Assembly: GCF_937873765.1 (NCBI RefSeq)
Contig: NZ_CALMZC010000058.1
Coordinates: 5,713-69,712 of the forward strand
Origin: an uncultured Thiothrix sp.
Lineage (GTDB): Bacteria; Pseudomonadota; Gammaproteobacteria; Thiotrichales; Thiotrichaceae
Direction of reading: 5' to 3'
DNA: 64,000 bases
Shown: positions 3,676-13,843 of the stretch, one piece after another
How positions within the stretch are numbered: position 1 is the stretch's first letter
Layout of the letters: each line of letters starts with the position of its first letter
Notes under the pieces: generated by a model
Databases searched by the model: none
Seen by the model: the letters and a program-made list of their open reading frames with translations, nothing else
Told to the model about the DNA's origin: nothing
Position numbers and translations under genes: made by a program

Positions 3676-4284
3676 ATGCAAATTACGATTATTAGCGGTA
3701 GTCATCGTCACCATTCTGAAAGCGAAAAAGTCGCTAAGCATGTGCAAACCGTGTTAACTGCACGAGGCATTCATGCTGAGATTTTTAGTTTAGCGGGAAA
3801 TCCTTTGCCTCTTTGGGATGAATCGATTTGGGACAATAATCCAGCATGGAACCAAATTTTAGCACCTTTGTCAGTCCAGCTAGCAGCAAGTGATGCTTTT
3901 GTCATCATCACGCCTGAATGGCATGGACAAGTGCCCGCAGGATTAAAGAATTTTTTCCTACTCTGGGGGCAAAACGAGCTTGCGCATAAGCCAGCATTAA
4001 TTATTGCTGTGTCATCCTCGACGGGTGGGGCTTATCCTGTAGCTGAGCTGAGAATGAGTAGTTATAAAAATAATCGTATTTGCTACCTTCCAGAGCATAT
4101 TATTATACGTCAGGTTACCAACGTGTTGAATGAAGACGCCAGTACCAATGACCCAACAACTGATACTTATTATCGTAAGCGGATTGATTGGGCTTTAGGC
4201 ATTTTAGAGCGTTATGCACAAGCCTTAGCACCTGTTAGAGCAGCAGACGGTTTATTTAATGAAGAATTTCGCAATGGGATGTAA
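3676..4284 (+). CDS. NADPH-dependent FMN reductase family protein
   Basis: MQITIISGSHR start, TPEWHGQVPAGLKN motif. Confidence 0.85.
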   Translation: MQITIISGSHRHHSESEKVAKHVQTVLTARGIHAEIFSLAGNPLPLWDESIWDNNPAWNQILAPLSVQLAASDAFVIITPEWHGQVPAGLKNFFLLWGQNELAHKPALIIAVSSSTGGAYPVAELRMSSYKNNRICYLPEHIIIRQVTNVLNEDASTNDPTTDTYYRKRIDWALGILERYAQALAPVRAADGLFNEEFRNGM

Positions 4285-4308
4285 ACCATTGATTGCAGAG
4301 GCCTAGTT

Positions 4309-5175
4309 ATGCTAAAAGCAGGTAAAACCCCTCAAATAGTGCTGAATAAGATCGGGAAATTTGATTATTTCCATGATGAGCATCATGCAGTACGGCGCAA
4401 TGAAATTCGCTGGCTGGTTGAGGAATTTACCGAAATTCCCATTGCCCATTTGCCGCCTTCTTTAGAAGGTTTCACCATTGTGCAATTGACTGATCTGCAT
4501 TTACGCCCTTTTACGCAATTAGAGCATATTGAACGTGCCGTGGTGCGTACCAATTTACTCAAGCCAGATTTAGTGGTTTTAACCGGTGATTATGTCTGGC
4601 ATGACGAGCAAGATATTTTAGATTTAGCCCCAGCACTAGCTAAATTAAATGCACGCTTCGGTTTATTCGCGGTCTTAGGTAATCACGATATCAAAGCGAA
4701 TGCTGCTTTAATTACCCAAGCTTTTGAGCGCAATGGTATTAAAGTACTGTGTAATCAAGGTTTGGATATTCAAGTTGGATATGATTGCTTGCATTTAGCG
4801 GGAATTGATGATGGTTGGCTCGGCAAGCCGGATATTAAGGCCACGTTAGCTGGGCATCGGGGTAAGATACCCGTTGTGCTGTTGGCGCACGAGCCGGATA
4901 TGATTGATTGGTACGCAGATGATACAAGAATTTCACTGCAGCTTTCAGGCCATACGCATGGTGGGCAAGTACAGGTAAAGCCGGGGAAACCTTTTATCCG
5001 ACCTTATTTGGGTAAAAAGTATGTTCAGGGTTTGTATCGGGTCAATCAGTCTTGGGTGTATACCAGTCGTGGTCTTGGGACAACTGGCTTACCGATAAGA
5101 CGCAATTGTGCTCCAGAAATTACGCATCTCACTTTGGTGAGTGGGCCGACAACTACCATCCAGACAGCGGCTTGA
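4309..5175 (+). CDS. Calcineurin-like metallophosphoesterase (YkuE-like)
   Basis: DLH, GD, GNHD and GHTHGGQ motifs. Confidence 0.9.
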   Translation: MLKAGKTPQIVLNKIGKFDYFHDEHHAVRRNEIRWLVEEFTEIPIAHLPPSLEGFTIVQLTDLHLRPFTQLEHIERAVVRTNLLKPDLVVLTGDYVWHDEQDILDLAPALAKLNARFGLFAVLGNHDIKANAALITQAFERNGIKVLCNQGLDIQVGYDCLHLAGIDDGWLGKPDIKATLAGHRGKIPVVLLAHEPDMIDWYADDTRISLQLSGHTHGGQVQVKPGKPFIRPYLGKKYVQGLYRVNQSWVYTSRGLGTTGLPIRRNCAPEITHLTLVSGPTTTIQTAA

Positions 5176-5362
5176 TGCGCTTGTCCGAAGAACCTTTGTG
5201 AGCGACAGGGGTTTCTTTAGACTGAGCATTAACCTTAATGGTCATGGTGCGAGTCAGCCAGAATCTGTCGGTAGATAGCAGTCTTAGATTATTCGTGGGC
5301 TTGCTAATGTGATTAGCTGACCTTTAAAAAACATAAATAAAAATAGATAAAGAGCGACGCGC

Positions 5363-5827
5363 GTGAATACGTCAGATCCAAACCAAGTTAATCCAGGTCG
5401 CGACCTGTCAGGCCTGAAGGTACTCATCATCGACGACAGCAAAACCATCTTGCGAACTGCAGAGGCTTTGCTATCTGAATGCCAATGCTGGGTAACAACC
5501 GCTTCTGATGGTTTTGAAGCCTTACCAATCATTGCTACCTTTAAGCCAGACGTCGTCTTCGTAGATATTATGATGCCGCGTTTAGATGGTTATCAGACTT
5601 GTGCCCTCATTAAAGCCAATCGTAATTATCGAGACATTCCAGTGATTATGCTTTCTAGTAAGGATGGTCTATTCGATTTAGCACGGGGGCGTTTGGCGGG
5701 TTCTGATAAGTATCTAACCAAGCCATTTACTCGCCAAGATTTGCTATCCACAATTTACAGTCATGTGCTGCCACATCTCCACGCTACTAAAGAGAAAGCT
5801 GGGGATGCAGCCACTACGCGGGAGTAG
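5363..5827 (+). CDS. pilG: Pil-Chp response regulator PilG
   Basis: IIDDSKTI, DIMMPRLDGYQTCALIK and LSSKDGLFD are PilG signatures. Confidence 0.9.
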   Translation: MNTSDPNQVNPGRDLSGLKVLIIDDSKTILRTAEALLSECQCWVTTASDGFEALPIIATFKPDVVFVDIMMPRLDGYQTCALIKANRNYRDIPVIMLSSKDGLFDLARGRLAGSDKYLTKPFTRQDLLSTIYSHVLPHLHATKEKAGDAATTRE

Positions 5828-5833
5828 TCAAGA

Positions 5834-6205
5834 GTGGCCAAGCACGTGCTGATTATTGATGATTCTTTGACAGAGACTCGAGTTTTCAAGTCCCTGCTAG
5901 AACATCATGGTTATAAGGTCAGCATTGCATGTAATGGGCAAGAGGGTATTGAGGTTGCACGTGTTTGCAATCCAGATCTAATTTTAATGGATGTTGTTAT
6001 GCCCTTAGTGAATGGGTTTCAGGCAACCCGTGAATTGAGTCGAAATCCAGATACTAAGCATATACCTATTATTGTATGCAGCTCTAAAGACACTGAAACA
6101 GATCGACTGTGGGCGCTACGGCAGGGTGCTAAGTCTTATCTGATTAAGCCGGTTAAATTACCGCTGCTTTTGGAGACAATCAATAAGTACTTGGCTGAAG
6201 GGTGA
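5834..6205 (+). CDS. pilH: Pil-Chp response regulator PilH
   Basis: IDDSLTE, DVVMP..NGFQATRELS, KDTETDRLWALRQGA; follows pilG. Confidence 0.9.
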   Translation: MAKHVLIIDDSLTETRVFKSLLEHHGYKVSIACNGQEGIEVARVCNPDLILMDVVMPLVNGFQATRELSRNPDTKHIPIIVCSSKDTETDRLWALRQGAKSYLIKPVKLPLLLETINKYLAEG

Positions 6206-6208
6206 GAT

Positions 6209-6769
6209 ATGGCCAGTCCTTATGAGTTGCTGATTGGTTTGGCTTTATTAAGAGAGAGAAAGCGCCAGCTTGAGGCAGATCAACAACAAGGGCCGATTCA
6301 AGCGTGGTCAGCGTTAGTAGTAAAAATAGGCTCTTGGCGCTGTGTAATGCGTCAAGATGAAGTCGATGAAGTAATAGCACCCAGTAAGTTAACTAAAGTG
6401 CTAGGTACACCGAATTGGATGCTAGGTATTGGTTACTTTCGTAATCAGTTACTGAATGTTTTAGATGGGCGTATGTTGTTTCTCGGCCGTTCCAACGGTT
6501 CGGTCAATCAGTTATCAGCACGTATCTTAGTTGTACAAGGGCAAGAAGAATGGTTTGGGATTAAGGTGGACGAACTGATTGGAATTCGGCACATTTGGTC
6601 TGATAGTGCTGAAATCAAAGCCCTAACTGACAAATTAAGTATTTGGCGTTCTTTTGCGACTCAATGCATTGTAATGAATGGCGAAGTAATGCCGATCTTA
6701 CAGGCAAGAGCTTTGATGCGTGGTTTAGAGCAGCAGTGTTCACCTGAACTCTCCGCTGTAGCAGTTTAA
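6209..6769 (+). CDS. pilI: CheW-like adaptor PilI
   Basis: TKVLGTPNWMLGIGYFRNQLL CheW-like motif; operon position. Confidence 0.8.
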   Translation: MASPYELLIGLALLRERKRQLEADQQQGPIQAWSALVVKIGSWRCVMRQDEVDEVIAPSKLTKVLGTPNWMLGIGYFRNQLLNVLDGRMLFLGRSNGSVNQLSARILVVQGQEEWFGIKVDELIGIRHIWSDSAEIKALTDKLSIWRSFATQCIVMNGEVMPILQARALMRGLEQQCSPELSAVAV

Positions 6770-6801
6770 TGAGCGAGCTTGAATATAAGAATTAAGAACA
6801 A

Positions 6802-8061
6802 ATGAATCATTCAATGCAACTCTCAAATATCTTTTTTACTGGAAAAATGATTTGGGTTCCGATTGGCCTGCTGTTATTTAGCATCGTCGGCATGATCATT
6901 TTTTTTCTAGTCGCTTCATCTTGGTTTGATTATCAACAGACCATGCACATTGGCATTTTAGGCTGCTTTATTATTCTCTTGAATATTCTCTGGGTCACTT
7001 ATCTGTTTTACCGCTTTTATACCCAACAAACCGCTTGGAGTAAGGTGGAGTCAGAACAGCAAGAGTCGATTATGTGTTTACTCGATGAAATGAGCACTCT
7101 AGCAGAAGGTGATTTAACTATTCGTGCTACTGTGTCAGAAAATATTACGGGTGCAGTGGCTGACTCAGTAAATTATGCAGTTGATGCACTGCGCGAACTG
7201 GTTATTAAAATCGATGATACCTCTGGGCGGTTGACACGTTTTGCACAAATTGCCGATAAGCGCATTTCACAGTTGTCTCAAGCCAGTACTCGGCAGTCTG
7301 AAGAAATTTCCATGGCATCTTCAGCGATTGCGGCGATGACCCATTCGATTCATAAGGTTTCGCGTAATGCCGCAGCCTCTACTGAAGTTGCACGGAAATC
7401 GCTGGAAATTTCTCAAGCTGGTGCGCACACAGTACGCAGTGCTATGAGCGACATGGTAACGGTACGTGAACAAATTCAAGCCACCTCTAAACGAATTAAG
7501 CGTCTGGGCGAAACCTCACAAGAGGTAGGCGATATTGTGCGTCTGATGAATGATATTGCTGAGCAAACCAATATCTTAGCTTTAAATGCTTCTATTCAAA
7601 CCTCATCGATGTCTGGGGGGAGGCGCAGTTTTGAGCGTGTGACCGATGAAGTCCAACAATTGGCACAGCGTTCAGCCGAAGCGAGCCGCAAGATTGATTT
7701 ATTAGTACGTGCAATTCAAACCGACACTCAAGAAGCAATTGCCTCGATGGAGCAAACTACTGCTCGTGTGGTGACCAGCTCGCGGAATGCTGAGTCAGCA
7801 GGAGCGGCTTTGGATGAAGTTGAAGAGGTTTCTACTAGTTTAGCACGCTTGATCGCGAATATTTCTGATGCTTCCTTTAAGCAAGCGGATATGGCGACAC
7901 GAGTTACCAGTACCATGCAATCAATTCAGGAAGGTACTCTACAAACTGAACAGTTTAGTAAAGAAACCACCGAACTTGTTGCTAACTTGAACGAAACTGC
8001 GAATGAATTACGGCGTTCGATTGCCGACTTTACTTTGAATAAAGCCGGGTCGACCAAGTAG
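6802..8061 (+). CDS. pilJ: Methyl-accepting chemoreceptor, short and divergent PilJ
   Basis: Two TM helices; LLDEMSTLAEGDLT and EQTNILALNA motifs; operon position. Confidence 0.8.
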   Translation: MNHSMQLSNIFFTGKMIWVPIGLLLFSIVGMIIFFLVASSWFDYQQTMHIGILGCFIILLNILWVTYLFYRFYTQQTAWSKVESEQQESIMCLLDEMSTLAEGDLTIRATVSENITGAVADSVNYAVDALRELVIKIDDTSGRLTRFAQIADKRISQLSQASTRQSEEISMASSAIAAMTHSIHKVSRNAAASTEVARKSLEISQAGAHTVRSAMSDMVTVREQIQATSKRIKRLGETSQEVGDIVRLMNDIAEQTNILALNASIQTSSMSGGRRSFERVTDEVQQLAQRSAEASRKIDLLVRAIQTDTQEAIASMEQTTARVVTSSRNAESAGAALDEVEEVSTSLARLIANISDASFKQADMATRVTSTMQSIQEGTLQTEQFSKETTELVANLNETANELRRSIADFTLNKAGSTK

Positions 8062-8130: not shown

Positions 8131-9948
8131 ATGATTTCTGATAAATCGAGTCTAGCTAGTCGTCTGGGATGGGTACTCGGAGAAACTGAGAAAGTCTTAA
8201 CCGAAACACGTCAATCATTTTCTACCTATGTGAGCGATACAGCTCTACCTAGTTTAGAGGCAGCTATTGGCAAAGCACGGCATGTCTTAGGTGTACTAGA
8301 TATTCTAGATACCGAAGGCGCTTATATGTTGGGGCGTGAAATCGTCCTGTTGATGGAGGCGATCCGCCAAGAAAAAGTTAAGCACTGGCAAGAAGCCTGC
8401 ACGATTACAGCGGATGGCTTGTTACAGCTTTCTGAATATTTGAAGCATTTGCGTGATGGCTATGCAGATTTGCCCGTGATTGTCTTGCCTATGATGAATA
8501 ACTTGCGAGCTGCACGTGAAGCTGAGTTATTGTCTGAGCATTTGGTGTTCCTTCCAGCCGAAGGGGTGGTCACAAATGAGCAAATCGGTACTGATAAATA
8601 TCTGTCTTTGCCGGCTGATAAATTAGATCAAGCCACTAAACGCTTACGTTTTTATATGCAAAAGGCGTTACTAGGCTGGTTTAACAATGATCGGCCTGCC
8701 TTCCATTTACAGGCCGCACGTAAAGTGGCTGTCAACATGATTACTCTGCATGAAAAAGAACGCTTGCGTGCTTTATGGTGGGTGACGAGTAGTTTATTGC
8801 AAGCCTTAGAGGAAAATAAGCTGGAAGACAGTGCTGCTGTTAAATTACTAATGGGGCGTATGGAGCGGGAAATTCGGCGCTTTGGTGATTTGCAAGAAAC
8901 AGCCTATAACGCATCTTTACCTGACGAGCTACTAAAAAACCTACTGTATTACGTGGGGTTAGCTGAAGAAAGTGACGGTACTTTAGCTGCGGTGAAACAG
9001 GCTTATCATCTTGATTTGTATTTGCCTAAAGGTAGTACTCTTCAAGAGTTGCGCACTTATTATACTAAACCGGGTCGCGAACTCTGGCAGGCTGTTTCCG
9101 CCTCATTACAAGATGAGTTAGCTTTATTAATGTCACAAGTAGAAAGCTTGGGGCTGCGTGAACATCCGACGGCTCTACTCGGCGACATAGCGAAACGTAC
9201 GGGTAGTTTAGCACAAACCTTAGGCATGTTAGGTTTAGGTACAGTGGCGGATCTCACTGATAAAATTGCTACTGAGCAACAGACGGTGGTCGCTGCTGAT
9301 ACACAGGTAAGCTCGGAGTTTTTAGAGCGCATGAGCGAGCACTACATTAAGTTGGAAAGTGTTCTGCGTGAATATGCTGAGACTGGCTATGATCTTACCG
9401 AAGAAATTTTCTTTGGAGAGGGGCAAAGTGGTAGTGAGTTGGGTGCAGCCCGTGAGGTTGTTCGCACTGCTTTAAGCTCTTTGGCTAAGGCTCAATCAGA
9501 ATTAGCCGCTTTCCATCAAGAAGAAGGTAATTTTGCGCGTTTGGATGAGATTTCCAAGATACTACGTAATATTTCTGGAACTTTAGAGATTCTAAATCAT
9601 CAAGAAGTACAGCCATTGGCTCAGGGTATAAAAGCTTATTTAGCTAAAGATCTGCAAGCTTCTAAGCGTAAACCTGCTGTAGAAGAAATCCACTGTGTTG
9701 CGGATATTATGACACTGCTGGAGGCAGCTCTATCTTGCATGAGTAATAATGAGGATCATTTACCTCTCTTACCAGTTGGCTTTGGCAAATTGCAGGAGTT
9801 AGATACTTACACTAAACTTGACCTAGTCCATGAGTCAGATTTGATACAAGCACAAGCTGAGTTCGATTATAAAAAAAAAGCGAAACAGCAAACCCCATCA
9901 ACTCTTTACCAGAAGCTACGCAATCAGCGCCTGCTGACCGAGGTTTAG
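8131..9948 (+). CDS. chpA: N-terminal (FimL-like, degenerate Hpt) part of ChpA in the unshifted frame
   Basis: FimL/ChpA-N-like content (LPVIVLPMMNNLRAAR, LLKNLLYYVG); stop comes 25 codons after the start of the A9 run. Confidence 0.75.
   Translation: MISDKSSLASRLGWVLGETEKVLTETRQSFSTYVSDTALPSLEAAIGKARHVLGVLDILDTEGAYMLGREIVLLMEAIRQEKVKHWQEACTITADGLLQLSEYLKHLRDGYADLPVIVLPMMNNLRAAREAELLSEHLVFLPAEGVVTNEQIGTDKYLSLPADKLDQATKRLRFYMQKALLGWFNNDRPAFHLQAARKVAVNMITLHEKERLRALWWVTSSLLQALEENKLEDSAAVKLLMGRMEREIRRFGDLQETAYNASLPDELLKNLLYYVGLAEESDGTLAAVKQAYHLDLYLPKGSTLQELRTYYTKPGRELWQAVSASLQDELALLMSQVESLGLREHPTALLGDIAKRTGSLAQTLGMLGLGTVADLTDKIATEQQTVVAADTQVSSEFLERMSEHYIKLESVLREYAETGYDLTEEIFFGEGQSGSELGAAREVVRTALSSLAKAQSELAAFHQEEGNFARLDEISKILRNISGTLEILNHQEVQPLAQGIKAYLAKDLQASKRKPAVEEIHCVADIMTLLEAALSCMSNNEDHLPLLPVGFGKLQELDTYTKLDLVHESDLIQAQAEFDYKKKAKQQTPSTLYQKLRNQRLLTEV
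9871..9879 (+). other. A9 homopolymer at the chpA frame transition (slippage site or indel)
   Basis: TAT AAA AAA AAA GCG; the -1 frame opens right after TAA 9870-9872 and stays open to 13382. Confidence 0.8.
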
Positions 9949-12900
9949 AGCTAACTGAACCGAATACCAAGCCCGTAACCTTAGAACCACCAAAAACTAA
10001 CCACAGCAGTACGGGTTTATATGACTCGTCAACTTTACGTGAGAAAGTTGGCGACGACATTTACGAAATCTTCGTTGAAGAAATCACAGAAATCCAAGCG
10101 AATTTCCAAGAGTGGATTCCTAGTTGGATTGGACAACGCACACTTTCTGAATCCTTAAAAGAAATTCGCCGCGGCTATCACACTTGTAAAGGTAGTGGGC
10201 GCATGGCGGGTGCTTTAGCCCTAGGTGATTATGCTTGGGCATATGAACGCATGCTCAATCAGGTTTTAGAGAAAACTCTGCCTATCAATGATCGCTTATG
10301 TAATCTATTAAATCAGTCTACGCAATACCTAACTAAGCGCTTAGATTTCTTCTTAACCGCTGTGCAAATCGACGATGACGCCAAGGCTGAAATCAAAAAG
10401 GTTGAAGATTTCATCCGTGATCCAAATATGATGGTCAATGCTGATCCAGATTTGTTGCTATTTGACTCTATTATTCAACTGGAATCTAAAGATCCAGCGA
10501 ATGAAAAAGAGCAGATAGTTTCTGAAATTGCCAATTCAGATTTTATTATTAAGGCAGACGAGGTAGTCGATGAAACACTATCAGCTCACCTAGAATATGA
10601 TGATAATTTCTTAAGTACCAGCATTGATGATGGATCAGAGTCTAGCTTCTTAATAGCTGTTGATGCTAGCGCAGTTGATGAGGCCATACCCAACTTACCA
10701 TTAGAGTTATTAGATAAATCAATAGAGTCAGAGCCTACAGCTACCCACAATCTAGATACCTTAGCGTGGCTCACACCGACTAATCCAAATGAATCTATTC
10801 CAGAGACGATAGAGACTGCTCCAATAGCTTTAGATACCTTTGATGATCAAAATGAAAATCAATTGGTCTGGGATTTGTTTCGTGAGGAGTTACCTGAGCA
10901 GTTGCAGAAGCTTGATCAATGGCTGCAGGTGTTGAATGCTAAGCCTACAGATTGGGAGGTCAGACGCTCTTTAGAGCGCGAGTTGCATACCTTGAAAGGC
11001 GGAGCACGCATGGCGCGCTTAATGGATTTAGGTGATTTAGCACATCAGTCGGAAACCTTATTAGAGAAATTAGGGCGGCATGCTAGCCCGGAAGAAGTAA
11101 AGGCTAAATTCCGCGTCTTACAAGATTTAGTGGATCAAATTAACAGCTTGGCCGAACATTATATGGCTTTGGATACGATGCCAACTGAGCAGAGTCCAGC
11201 TAAATTAGTGTCGACATTAGTTCAGCCAGATCAAACTGAGTCAGCTATAACATCGGCCGCTACTAAACTTGAGTCAACTAAACTACACACTTCGACTCCG
11301 GTAGAGTCACTGTCTAAAGCAGATGATACTCAAAGCCCCGACGCTTACTTGAATGCACCAAAACTTAGTGCGCCTGTTAAAACTTATGACAGCCTGCTAG
11401 AGCGTTTACTGGCTGAGAAAGCACAGACACTACCGGACTTGACGGTGTTGACTGATAAAAAGTCTGAAACCAAACAAGCTACACCTAGTTTAAATGAGGA
11501 TGCCAATTCAGCCCTTGCTCAAGAGCAAATTCGTCTGCCTGCCGTTTTCTTAGATAAGATGATTGATCGAGCTGGCAGTTTGAACATGCAACAAAATGCT
11601 CTCAGCGAGCGCTTACAGATTATGACCGATGATGTAAGCGAATTTAGTCGTACTGCCGCACGTTTAAAGCAGTTGTTACGCTCTTTAGAGTTAGAGACAG
11701 AAGCACAAATTCATGCAGGTTATCGCCAGTCAGTCGCTGCGCAAAATAAAGGTGCCGATTTTGACCCACTGGAAATGGATCAGTATTCCGAGCTACAACG
11801 TCTGTCCCGTGCTTTGGCAGAAAGCTTAAATGACTTAGTGAATATCGAGGCTGACTTAGGAGTACAACTGCGCAATAGCAGTATGGTACTAAAAGATGCA
11901 CTCAGCTCGAGCCGCTACTTGCACCAAGATTTATTGGAAACTCGCTTAGTAGAAGCAATGGTGATTGTGCCACGCTTAAAGCGAATTGTACGCCAGACCT
12001 CGACTGAGCTAGGGCGTGAAGTCAATTTAGACATTGACGGTGAAGCTTTTAAGCTAGACCGTCATTTATTACAGCGCATGACAGCACCGATTGAACACTT
12101 GTTACGCAATGCTGTTTCGCATGGGATCGAGACACCGCAAGAGCGGACAGTTGTAGGCAAGCCACTACAGGGACAAATAACCTTAAAAGTCTTCCGTGAA
12201 GATACAGAAATCATTTTCCAAGTCCAAGATGATGGACGTGGCTTAAATCGTAAGCGCTTAAGGGCTAAAGCTGAAGAACTCGGTTTAGTTAAGCCGCAAG
12301 ATACCCTCTCTGATCAAGATACCATGCGTTTAATTCTACGCCCTGGTTTCTCGACCGCTAGTTCCTTAAGCCAAATTTCTGGGCGCGGGGTAGGTATGGA
12401 TGTGGTGAGTTCTGAAGTGAAGGCTTTGGGTGGGCATCTACAAATCATCTCCACGGAAGGGCAGGGAACTTTATTTACTATGCGTTTACCCTTTGCGATG
12501 GCTGCCAATCCGGTTCTATTTGTGGGGACACAGAGCCAGACCTATGCACTACCCTTGGGCTATATACAGGGCTTAACACGTTTAGACTTGAACAAAGTAC
12601 GTGAACATCTGGATCAAGCCGATAAATATATCGCCTTTAATGGACAGGACTATGTAGTACGCTATTTAGGGGCTGTTTTAGAGCCGGGTACGCAATTAGT
12701 CTTACAGGATGATCATGTTTATCCTGTAATTTTTGTGCGTACCAGTGGCAGTCATTGTATTGCATGGATTGTGGATAAAATTTTTGGGCGGCGTGAGGTC
12801 GTTTTACAGTCGTTAGGTAGGTTGTTCAAAGAAAGTCGTTTCTATTCTTCTGCAACGATTACCAGTGATGGTGAAGTAGTACTTTTACCAGATATGGCTG

Positions 12901-13382
12901 ATTTGGCCTTACGTGTTAGTGGTTCAGCTAATCCTGCTCAGACAAGTGAGTCAATTTTTGTCACTCCTACTCCAGAACGCCATGAACGCCCACATATTTT
13001 AGTGGTGGATGATTCTATCACCGTACGTAAAGTCACCGAAAAGCTGTTAATTAGTGAAAATATGTTGGTAGGTACGGCTAAAGACGGTTTGGAGGCACTA
13101 GAAATTGTAGAAAAATTCGATCCTGATTTAATCCTCATGGATATCGAAATGCCACGTATGGATGGATTTGAAGTGCTAGAAACAGTTCGCCAGAACCCTG
13201 TTTGGAATCATGTGCCTATTATTATGATTAGTTCGCGTACTGCTGAAAAACATCAGCAGCGTGCTGAACAGTTAGGTGCAAATAGTTTCTTAGGCAAACC
13301 GTATCAAAATCAAGAGCTAATGGCTTTGATTCGGCGTTACTTAGCATTAAATCCTAATTGGACTGAGGAGATGGCCGCATGA
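9873..13382 (+). CDS. chpA: C-terminal part of ChpA: Hpt domains, CheA-like kinase, CheW and receiver domains (-1 frame)
   Basis: Frame reads VGDDIYEIFVEEI...EIRRGYHTCKGSGRMAG, so an Hpt domain spans the first ATG (10203). Second Hpt HTLKGGARMA, HLLRNAVSHG, DDGRG, SGRGVGMDVV and a C-terminal REC follow. Confidence 0.9.
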   Translation, partial: KKSETANPINSLPEATQSAPADRGLELTEPNTKPVTLEPPKTNHSSTGLYDSSTLREKVGDDIYEIFVEEITEIQANFQEWIPSWIGQRTLSESLKEIRRGYHTCKGSGRMAGALALGDYAWAYERMLNQVLEKTLPINDRLCNLLNQSTQYLTKRLDFFLTAVQIDDDAKAEIKKVEDFIRDPNMMVNADPDLLLFDSIIQLESKDPANEKEQIVSEIANSDFIIKADEVVDETLSAHLEYDDNFLSTSIDDGSESSFLIAVDASAVDEAIPNLPLELLDKSIESEPTATHNLDTLAWLTPTNPNESIPETIETAPIALDTFDDQNENQLVWDLFREELPEQLQKLDQWLQVLNAKPTDWEVRRSLERELHTLKGGARMARLMDLGDLAHQSETLLEKLGRHASPEEVKAKFRVLQDLVDQINSLAEHYMALDTMPTEQSPAKLVSTLVQPDQTESAITSAATKLESTKLHTSTPVESLSKADDTQSPDAYLNAPKLSAPVKTYDSLLERLLAEKAQTLPDLTVLTDKKSETKQATPSLNEDANSALAQEQIRLPAVFLDKMIDRAGSLNMQQNALSERLQIMTDDVSEFSRTAARLKQLLRSLELETEAQIHAGYRQSVAAQNKGADFDPLEMDQYSELQRLSRALAESLNDLVNIEADLGVQLRNSSMVLKDALSSSRYLHQDLLETRLVEAMVIVPRLKRIVRQTSTELGREVNLDIDGEAFKLDRHLLQRMTAPIEHLLRNAVSHGIETPQERTVVGKPLQGQITLKVFREDTEIIFQVQDDGRGLNRKRLRAKAEELGLVKPQDTLSDQDTMRLILRPGFSTASSLSQISGRGVGMDVVSSEVKALGGHLQIISTEGQGTLFTMRLPFAMAANPVLFVGTQSQTYALPLGYIQGLTRLDLNKVREHLDQADKYIAFNGQDYVVRYLGAVLEPGTQLVLQDDHVYPVIFVRTSGSHCIAWIVDKIFGRREVVLQSLGRLFKESRFYSSATITSDGEVVLLPDMADLALRVSGSANPAQTSESIFVTPTPERHERPHILVVDDSITVRKVTEKLLISENMLVGTAKDGLEALEIVEKFDPDLILMDIEMPRMDGFEVLETVRQNPVWNHVPIIMISSRTAEKHQQRAEQLGANSFLGKPYQNQELMALIRRYLALNPNWTEEMAA

Positions 13383-13843
13383 ATAGTAAAAAACCCATGA
13401 TTAAATGTGCGGTCTTGCGCTTACAACATGGTAGTTTGATTGTGCCATTTAATTTGATTGCTGAAATGGTCACCGTTGATCATTTAGAAAACTCGGATAT
13501 GCCGGGGATTTTGGGTTGGCTAAGTTGGCTGAATCGTCCCGTGCCGGTTGTTTCATTGGAGTCGCTGTGTTTGTTAGGTGAGGGGAATATTGAAACGGCT
13601 AGTAACTGCTTAATTCTACACACAGTATCAGACTGTGAGGATTTACCTTTTATTGCTTTGCAAGTACAAGGCGGCTTACAAACGGTTGAGATCAGCGAAG
13701 ACACTTTGCGTGATGATTATAGTGGTAACACTCAACGCTGCCCCTATGTCGCACGCCAAGTACGGATTTCGCAATTAGTCTGTTTAATTCCAGATTTACC
13801 TGCGCTAGAGGCTTCGGTAGTAGAGATTTTGGCTTATACCTGA
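13379..13843 (+). CDS. chpC: CheW-like protein ChpC
   Basis: GILGWLSWLNRPVPVVSLE; 4-nt overlap with the chpA stop. Confidence 0.75.
   Translation: MNSKKPMIKCAVLRLQHGSLIVPFNLIAEMVTVDHLENSDMPGILGWLSWLNRPVPVVSLESLCLLGEGNIETASNCLILHTVSDCEDLPFIALQVQGGLQTVEISEDTLRDDYSGNTQRCPYVARQVRISQLVCLIPDLPALEASVVEILAYT

Follow-up and report, generated by a model that had tools for sequence, protein, structure and literature searches.

In this study, we analysed chpA (8131-13382, forward strand), the kinase gene of a pilGHIJ-chpA signalling operon, in a stretch of 64,000 nucleotides from contig NZ_CALMZC010000058.1, which as a whole is called the window. The DNA belongs to a Thiotrichaceae bacterium from activated sludge that is related to Thiothrix (Thiolinea) eikelboomii. 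The window chpA is broken into two reading frames at a run of nine adenines (A9), and we consider it likely that it is a programmed recoding gene, in which slippage of RNA polymerase on the A9 run yields both a FimL-like protein and full-length ChpA. We observed the frame layout itself, its conservation throughout the family, selection on both frames and, in a relative with a run of ten adenines (A10), RNA that is heterogeneous at the run over DNA that is homogeneous. These observations sustain the proposal of the initial annotation, made from the window sequence, that one gene gives a FimL-sized protein and a full ChpA by programmed recoding.

Frame layout of chpA at the A9 run

The first open reading frame (ORF) of chpA extends from 8131 to 9948, encodes 605 amino acids and passes through ...GAT TAT AAA AAA AAA GCG... 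The A9 run at 9871 to 9879 is the longest homopolymer of the 64-kb window. In the -1 frame, a TAA formed by the T before the run and its first two As (9870-9872) is followed by a stretch that is free of stops from 9873 to the stop codon at 13382. Both frames were re-read and agree with the initial annotation. The product of the -1 frame matched the ChpA domain set in Pfam, namely two Hpt domains, HATPase_c, CheW and a receiver. The earliest ATG, GTG or TTG of this frame is located at 10203. With codons of the -1 frame numbered from 9879, the Pfam match to the first Hpt domain (Hpt1) covers residues 61-147 (approximately nt 10059-10320), and this match was lost for a protein begun at 10203, in line with the earlier claim that this start lies inside an Hpt domain. 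As Hpt1 extends to both sides of the first canonical start, its production requires recoding. Editing A9 to A10 computationally gave a stop-free chpA product of 1750 amino acids, as had been predicted.

The A9 run was recovered in DNA contigs from four runs of two studies (depth 18-68), with no differences and no gaps over positions 9600-10200. A 99%-identical contig of another project (L082) also has A9, as does Thiothrix eikelboomii ATCC 49788 (L004), which is 85% identical.

The short product resembles FimL. In precomputed Pfam annotation, FimL_2nd and FimL_C (PF26379, PF27543) are assigned to a 98%-identical protein (P0001) and to all 114 homologue clusters described below. Direct searches with the 605-residue ORF gave no Pfam or NCBIfam match, Hpt included, with a Pfam set that was searched without the FimL models, and sequence and profile searches against the PDB returned chance matches only. 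FimL of Pseudomonas aeruginosa is a homologue of the ChpA N-terminus (~563 residues) without phospho-accepting histidines (PMC3019171). It binds FimV and PilG and localises PilG, and it acts together with ChpA in bringing PilG to the pole (PMC10519157). The 605-residue product likewise has FimL_2nd and FimL_C without an Hpt match, and its sequence is that of the N-terminal module in the long product. The short product may act like FimL.

Conservation of the frame break and of both reading frames

A homologue search with the fused N-terminal 883 residues as query matched 114 clusters of ~550-650 amino acids (with a few shorter partials), at identities from 98% down to 34%. Their hosts are Thiothrix, Thiolinea, Thiofilum and other Thiotrichaceae, and their domains are FimL_2nd and FimL_C only. 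No fused protein was present among these 114 Thiotrichaceae clusters; Hpt-bearing fused proteins appeared only below ~30% identity over most of their length. Reading frames were then compared at 77 genomic loci, of which 42 Thiotrichaceae and 32 outgroup loci (Thioalkalivibrio, Xanthomonadales, Chromatiales, Thiohalophilus and others) were readable. At 40 of the 42 Thiotrichaceae loci the kinase is encoded in the -1 frame, which shares 61-133 nt with the 5' ORF, so that the comparison of orthologs suggested in the initial annotation did reveal a conserved A-run and frame break. By contrast, all 32 outgroup loci have a single uninterrupted chpA ORF of 1875-2523 codons. The FimL-like module is thus contiguous with the kinase in 32/32 outgroup loci, and in the window only after recoding. 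Relatives with an uninterrupted chpA lacking the run, which the initial annotation had named as evidence against recoding, were therefore found only outside the Thiotrichaceae.

At every locus the overlap starts at an A-run in phase. The run is A9G (NNT AAA AAA AAA GCN) at 18 loci including the window, A10 (e.g., GCA AAA AAA AAA GCN or CAA AAA AAA AAG) at 20 loci and A13G at one locus; eight deep-branching loci have A6G (TTA/CTA/TCA AAA AAG, i.e., A_AAA_AAG). Runs of A9 or longer are hence present at 39 Thiotrichaceae loci, and their length is fixed per clade. In the protein alignment, KKK is nearly invariant inside an otherwise variable linker. At the listed A9G Thiotrichaceae loci a T precedes the run, so that the -1-frame TAA sits exactly at the run start. 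Most A10 loci share the context GCA AAA AAA AAA, and the GC that follows the run is also nearly invariant. The pilGHIJ-chpA signalling operon has been inherited vertically through the Thiotrichaceae.

One exception to the recoded layout is informative. In L009 and L084 the run is interrupted (AAT AAG AAA AAA GCG) and the FimL-like ORF keeps its tail (L009:6640-6900), while the kinase gene follows in the same frame, past two stops, with an ATG of its own (MMNNADNE...) just before Hpt1. These loci represent a true fission of the recoded gene into two ordinary genes. L009 is a metagenome-assembled genome (MAG) from a dolphin-oral sample. It branches within the recoded crown clade beside L083, a sister that retains A9 and the -1 shift, and the split is therefore secondary. 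Further deviations concern data quality: L028, a co-assembled MAG, has A9 where its sisters have A10 (7700-7800), and the long-read MAGs L030 and L064 have Ns or many indels at the junction. The short run of L028 is probably assembly noise.

Selection acts on both frames past the run. Over the 17 codons that follow it, amino-acid identity between pairs of loci averages 48% for frame 0 vs 31% for frame -1 and 28% for the +1 control, and the third position of the frame-0 codons is the least conserved (0.58 vs 0.73 and 0.74). The resulting 0-frame tail has the conserved pattern AKQ..PSTLYQKLRN... The frame-0 identity and the third-position pattern show that this 22-residue tail, which is made only without recoding, is under purifying selection, and this argues that the 605-residue product is real. 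The -1 frame, for its part, encodes indispensable kinase domains. At 10 of 45 loci, the window among them, its first canonical start falls past the histidine of Hpt1; at the others the position of this start is scattered.

A similar arrangement was seen at a great distance. In uncultured Gammaproteobacteria with 24-27% identity (P0121-P0133), a FimL-like ORF of ~615 amino acids ends just past an A8-A10 run and the kinase lies in the -1 frame, which matches the Thiotrichaceae layout. Broken states in this second lineage include L096 (A8, 4141-4148), L108 (A9, 4204-4212) and L092 (A10, 4270-4279); fused in-frame states at the same run are found in L097 (A9, 4216-4224), P0126 and P0130. Because the lineage is nested among fused ChpAs in a rough neighbour-joining tree, its arrangement is probably of independent origin.

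Run-length heterogeneity in RNA and the proposed mechanism of recoding

RNA-level data were available for the relative L035, Candidatus Thiothrix sp. SCUT-1, which has ~49% protein identity to the window and a genomic A10 (L035:7737-7746). In one study (P9), RNA contigs carry A10 (X21, X22), A11 (X24) and A13 (X23), and these are the sole indels over 13.8 kb. In a second study (P10; X25-X28, depth 150-2400), the assembly graph forks into parallel pieces at the run. Judged by rough k-mer depths, X25 contains A10 at 412, A11 at 340 and A14 at 96, and X28 contains A10 at 335, A11 at 130 and A15 at 96; X27 has A13 and X26 has A10. A11 and A14 bring the L035 kinase in frame, and A13 leaves frame 0. 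DNA of the same sample (X33, 226x) gave one 10-kb contig with A10, and two other DNA runs also have A10. A further DNA run (X37) has a contig tip with A8 at a depth of 4.7 (L035:7737), which is probably assembly noise, too. Two shorter runs of this operon, A8 and A7, showed no variants in the same RNA at a depth of 730-1180. Since the DNA control is uniform and the A7 and A8 controls are clean, an artefact of preparation or sequencing is argued against. Insertion-only, run-length-dependent and RNA-specific heterogeneity is the signature of RNA polymerase slippage, as in Thermus dnaX, whose mRNAs carry one or more added As (PMC1088944, PMC5009743). The heterogeneity in RNA that the initial annotation had suggested to look for is thus present in the A10 relative, although no RNA run holding the window sequence itself was found.

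The depth of the L035 contigs differs along the gene. The middle of the kinase part has a depth of 16-19 vs 70-129 for the pilJ-to-FimL-like part in P9, and of 0-60 vs 150-1250 in P10. Across eight metatranscriptome runs, L035:7787-11590 lies ~4- to >10-fold below 4300-7786, with a recovery in the genes further downstream. Although contig depth reflects expression poorly, this drop would fit polarity or decay of the untranslated 3' RNA of unslipped transcripts.

Around the run, two types of signal can be distinguished. The deep-branching clade has an SD-like (Shine-Dalgarno-like) GAGG/GGAG 10-13 nt upstream of A6G and, after a spacer of 5-6 nt downstream, a hairpin with a 9-bp stem, CCGCCAGAA...TTCTGGCGG, both at 8/8 loci (e.g., L038:3865-3946). 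The 45 nt downstream fold with a free energy (dG) of -10.7 to -17.9 kcal/mol (mean -13.6, n=6); the mean z versus shuffled sequences is -3.45 (n=6). Changes in the stem are one-sided G-U changes only, double covariation was not found in it, and two further members keep the stem. This corresponds to a dnaX-type -1 frameshift layout, as in Escherichia coli, where dnaX has A_AAA_AAG with SD and hairpin; Thermus dnaX has an A9 run (PMC3711429, PMC5009743). The likely mechanism in this A_AAA_AAG clade is therefore -1 ribosomal frameshifting of the classical kind. The long-run loci (A8 and longer) are different, with a mean dG of -6.1 kcal/mol over the 45 nt downstream and a mean z of +0.19 (n=42 each), no consensus pairs among 33 A9/A10 sequences folded together and no consistent SD-like element upstream. 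In agreement with the initial annotation, the window itself lacks a stimulator: local folding past the run is not significant (over 80 nt, z = -1.67; dG of the next 45 nt, -2.5), and no SD-like element lies 10-13 nt upstream of the run. The absence of conserved structure at long-run loci is as expected for polymerase slippage: runs of at least 9 without stimulators are associated with transcriptional slippage, and a 9A run that is conserved among homologues indicates purposeful slippage (PMC1088944, PMC5009743). Of the two mechanisms named in the initial annotation, slippage is therefore better supported in the A9/A10 clade, whereas -1 ribosomal frameshifting fits the deep clade instead.

Based on these data, we propose the following course of events for the window. 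On faithful A9 mRNA, translation would end at 9948 and give the 605-residue FimL-like protein with its conserved 22-residue tail. RNA polymerase would slip on A9 and add As to part of the transcripts. In transcripts with one (or four) additional As, the downstream 1167 codons would be in frame, and ordinary translation would yield the 1750-residue ChpA, a hybrid kinase composed of FimL-like module, linker, two Hpt domains, kinase, CheW and receiver. The ratio of scaffold-like protein to kinase would in this way be obtained from one gene and be fixed by the slippage frequency; loss of the 3' RNA that is left untranslated in unslipped transcripts would probably sharpen it. Some additional ChpA may come from -1 ribosomal frameshifting, as the A_AAA_AAA heptamer is in phase.

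Several points weigh against this mechanism. The L035 RNA was read as assembled contigs or unitigs, from which run-length proportions are approximate, and reverse-transcriptase slippage during library preparation could in principle be a source of the heterogeneity. The library type of X25-X28 is labelled 'RNA?'; their very uneven depth fits RNA. Four wastewater RNA runs were likewise negative for the window sequence. The RNA evidence thus comes from a relative with A10, and the A9 of the window would be expected to behave like A10. Accumulation of both proteins is predicted, on the indirect evidence of purifying selection on the 0-frame tail and on the -1 frame domains, which have no independent start. 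Finally, since A_AAA_AAA is in phase, a ribosomal share is inseparable from polymerase slippage.

An alternative explanation is that -1 programmed ribosomal frameshifting at A_AAA_AAA(G), on mRNA that is mostly uniform, is the main route to ChpA in the window. The window heptamer does sit in the X_XXY_YYZ phase, and the deep clade of the same gene family has the complete dnaX-like signal. However, the window and all 42 long-run loci are without a conserved hairpin or a well-spaced SD element, runs of 9-13 nt exceed the need of a heptamer, and the RNA of the A10 relative is strongly heterogeneous, with abundant A11 that already supplies in-frame mRNA. We regard a mainly ribosomal route in the window as unlikely. 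It is very unlikely that the locus consists of two overlapping genes without recoding, a fimL-like gene and a chpA with its own internal or non-canonical start. L009/L084 has exactly such a layout, and the parts can work as separate polypeptides, but the first ATG, GTG or TTG of the -1 frame in the window lies inside Hpt1, start positions are unconserved, the slippery run is where the -1 frame becomes open at all loci and the L009 split is secondary.

Phase variation, by which changes of the DNA run length would switch ChpA on and off in subpopulations, had also been considered in the initial annotation. Homopolymer tracts are classical contingency loci, and broken (L096) and fused (L097, P0126, P0130) states occur at the same run in the unrelated second lineage. 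Within the Thiotrichaceae, however, all readable genomes share one 'off' frame, the run length is fixed per clade, the DNA of L035 is uniformly A10 at 226x where its RNA is heterogeneous, the four assemblies of the window sequence are uniform and the tail is conserved. This renders phase variation highly improbable. A homopolymer error in sequencing or assembly, with a true gene that has A10 and is uninterrupted, had been rated an equally live explanation; homopolymers are indeed error-prone, and L028 (one base short) and the garbled L030 and L064 illustrate this. The possibility was rejected and is now practically negligible, given four independent A9 assemblies without gaps, the A9 of L082, about 40 isolate and MAG genomes that share one frame state, and a tail under selection. 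Hardly any weight can be given, either, to a decaying pseudogene. A long gene with a frame break might suggest decay, but one and the same break is kept down to 33% protein identity with intact halves and no further stops, all kinase domains are intact and the gene is transcribed in a relative.

Relation to known systems and features of the locus

Programmed slippage or frameshifting in a cellular gene is of a known type, and the close parallel of the chpA case is dnaX (tau/gamma). In the literature on frameshifting and slippage, we found no report of recoding in chpA, cheA, fimL or Thiothrix, and chemotaxis and histidine kinases go unmentioned in the GeneTack survey with its accessible supplements and in the 2016 recoding review. 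Like chpA, dnaX is a cellular, non-mobile gene in which one locus gives two nested proteins. Its homologues use either heptamer, SD and hairpin or a bare A9/A10 run, which is the same split as between the deep and crown clades of chpA, and its slipped mRNAs have one or several extra As (PMC5009743, PMC3711429), as does the L035 RNA. The two differ in that dnaX encodes a replicase subunit and chpA a chemosensory kinase, and in that recoding makes the shorter product of dnaX but the long product of chpA. This direction, with a short product in the templated frame and a long product by recoding, is that of IS3 OrfAB or of the phage tail-chaperones G/GT. Transposases of insertion sequences, which use A-run slippage or A_AAA_AAG, also have the upstream ORF as default and need the -1 frame for the fusion; their run length is conserved among homologues, and runs of at least 9 are without stimulatory structures (Baranov et al. 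2005, PMC1088944). However, chpA belongs to a conserved chromosomal signalling operon and is not mobile.

Within chemosensory systems, E. coli CheA-L/CheA-S is another case of a chemotaxis kinase gene that gives two nested proteins at a set ratio. CheA-S is made by internal initiation and lacks the N-terminus, whereas the short form of chpA is the N-terminal module and is formed by termination without recoding. In Pseudomonas, FimL and ChpA are encoded by two genes; here, one gene with recoding would provide both, and FimL-like binding roles of the short product are putative. The findings bear on the open point of why a paralogue of the ChpA N-terminus, FimL, is retained in Pseudomonas (PMC3019171, PMC10519157). 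A single gene would give the Thiotrichaceae this module both free and linked to the kinase, and the L009/L084 split shows that the two parts are separable.

For the family as a whole, we moderately favour a joint reading in which all Thiotrichaceae make ChpA only via recoding, by polymerase slippage in the crown and by a dnaX-like -1 frameshift in the deep clade, with a free FimL-like scaffold as default product. In this joint reading, slippage frequency and loss of 3' RNA would set or tune the ratio of scaffold to kinase, and the unrelated gammaproteobacterial lineage would have reached an A-run at the same domain boundary independently. If so, chpA would follow dnaX as the second example in nature of a gene family that swaps between both recoding mechanisms. 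Recoding that is conserved in cellular non-mobile bacterial genes is rare, the textbook cases being dnaX and prfB (PMC5009743). To these cellular cases chpA adds a signalling kinase, with ~50 loci compared and support at the RNA level.

The recoding also has consequences for annotation. Pipelines name the 5' part 'hypothetical protein' and cut the kinase at arbitrary internal starts; therefore, every genome of Thiothrix, Thiolinea and Thiofilum has a wrongly annotated ChpA. These genera are filamentous bacteria of activated-sludge bulking.

The features of the locus are listed in Table 1. Two response regulators, a CheW and a methyl-accepting chemotaxis protein (MCP) lie directly 5' of chpA, and the same order is found in L109 and L111.

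Table 1. Features of the chpA locus in the window (positions of the 64,000-nt stretch).
Feature	Position	Strand	Remarks
Recoded chpA, whole gene	8131..13382	+	A10 mRNA (A9 templated) would encode 1750-aa ChpA
0-frame ORF, FimL-like, 605 aa	8131..9948	+	FimL_2nd and FimL_C, without Hpt; proposed product of unslipped mRNA
A9 slippery run, TAT AAA AAA AAA GCG, in-phase A_AAA_AAA heptamer	9871..9879	+	Proposed recoding site
0-frame tail AKQQTPSTLYQKLRNQRLLTEV and stop	9880..9948	+	Unique to short product; under purifying selection
-1 frame ORF: Pro/Thr/Ser-rich linker, Hpt1, Hpt2, HATPase_c, CheW, receiver	9873..13382	+	No start codon before 10203
Hpt1, phospho-acceptor motif HTCKGSG	10059..10320	+	Spans first canonical start 10203
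Hpt2	10869..11144	+	Pfam; residues 333-424 of protein read from 9873
HATPase_c kinase domain	12090..12497	+	Pfam
ChpA CheW-like domain	12513..12905	+	Pfam
C-terminal receiver (CheY-like)	12996..13331	+	Pfam
pilG-like response regulator	5363..5827	+	Pfam; operon context
pilH-like response regulator	5834..6205	+	Pfam
pilI-like CheW	6209..6769	+	Pfam
pilJ-like MCP	6802..8061	+	Pfam
chpC-like CheW	13379..13843	+	ATG overlaps chpA stop (ATGA)
Junction tryptic peptide SETANPINSLPEATQSAPADR			Predicted for full-length ChpA

The overlap of the chpC-like start with the chpA stop (ATGA, 13379-13382) suggests translational coupling, so that CheW output may also depend on ribosomes in the recoded frame. 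The acidic linker past Hpt1 (L035:8505-8557) contains short tandem repeats, the copy number of which differs between the MAG and the RNA contigs, with a joint from 8557 back to 8505 and a 16-nt insert. Linker expansions after Hpt1 were also observed as (ET)n in L081 and (SGSR)n in L032. A T8 run at 6899-6906 lies within the pilJ-like ORF and is not accompanied by a frame break. This ORF encodes 419 amino acids in the window, and PilJ of the deeper clades has 686-722 amino acids.

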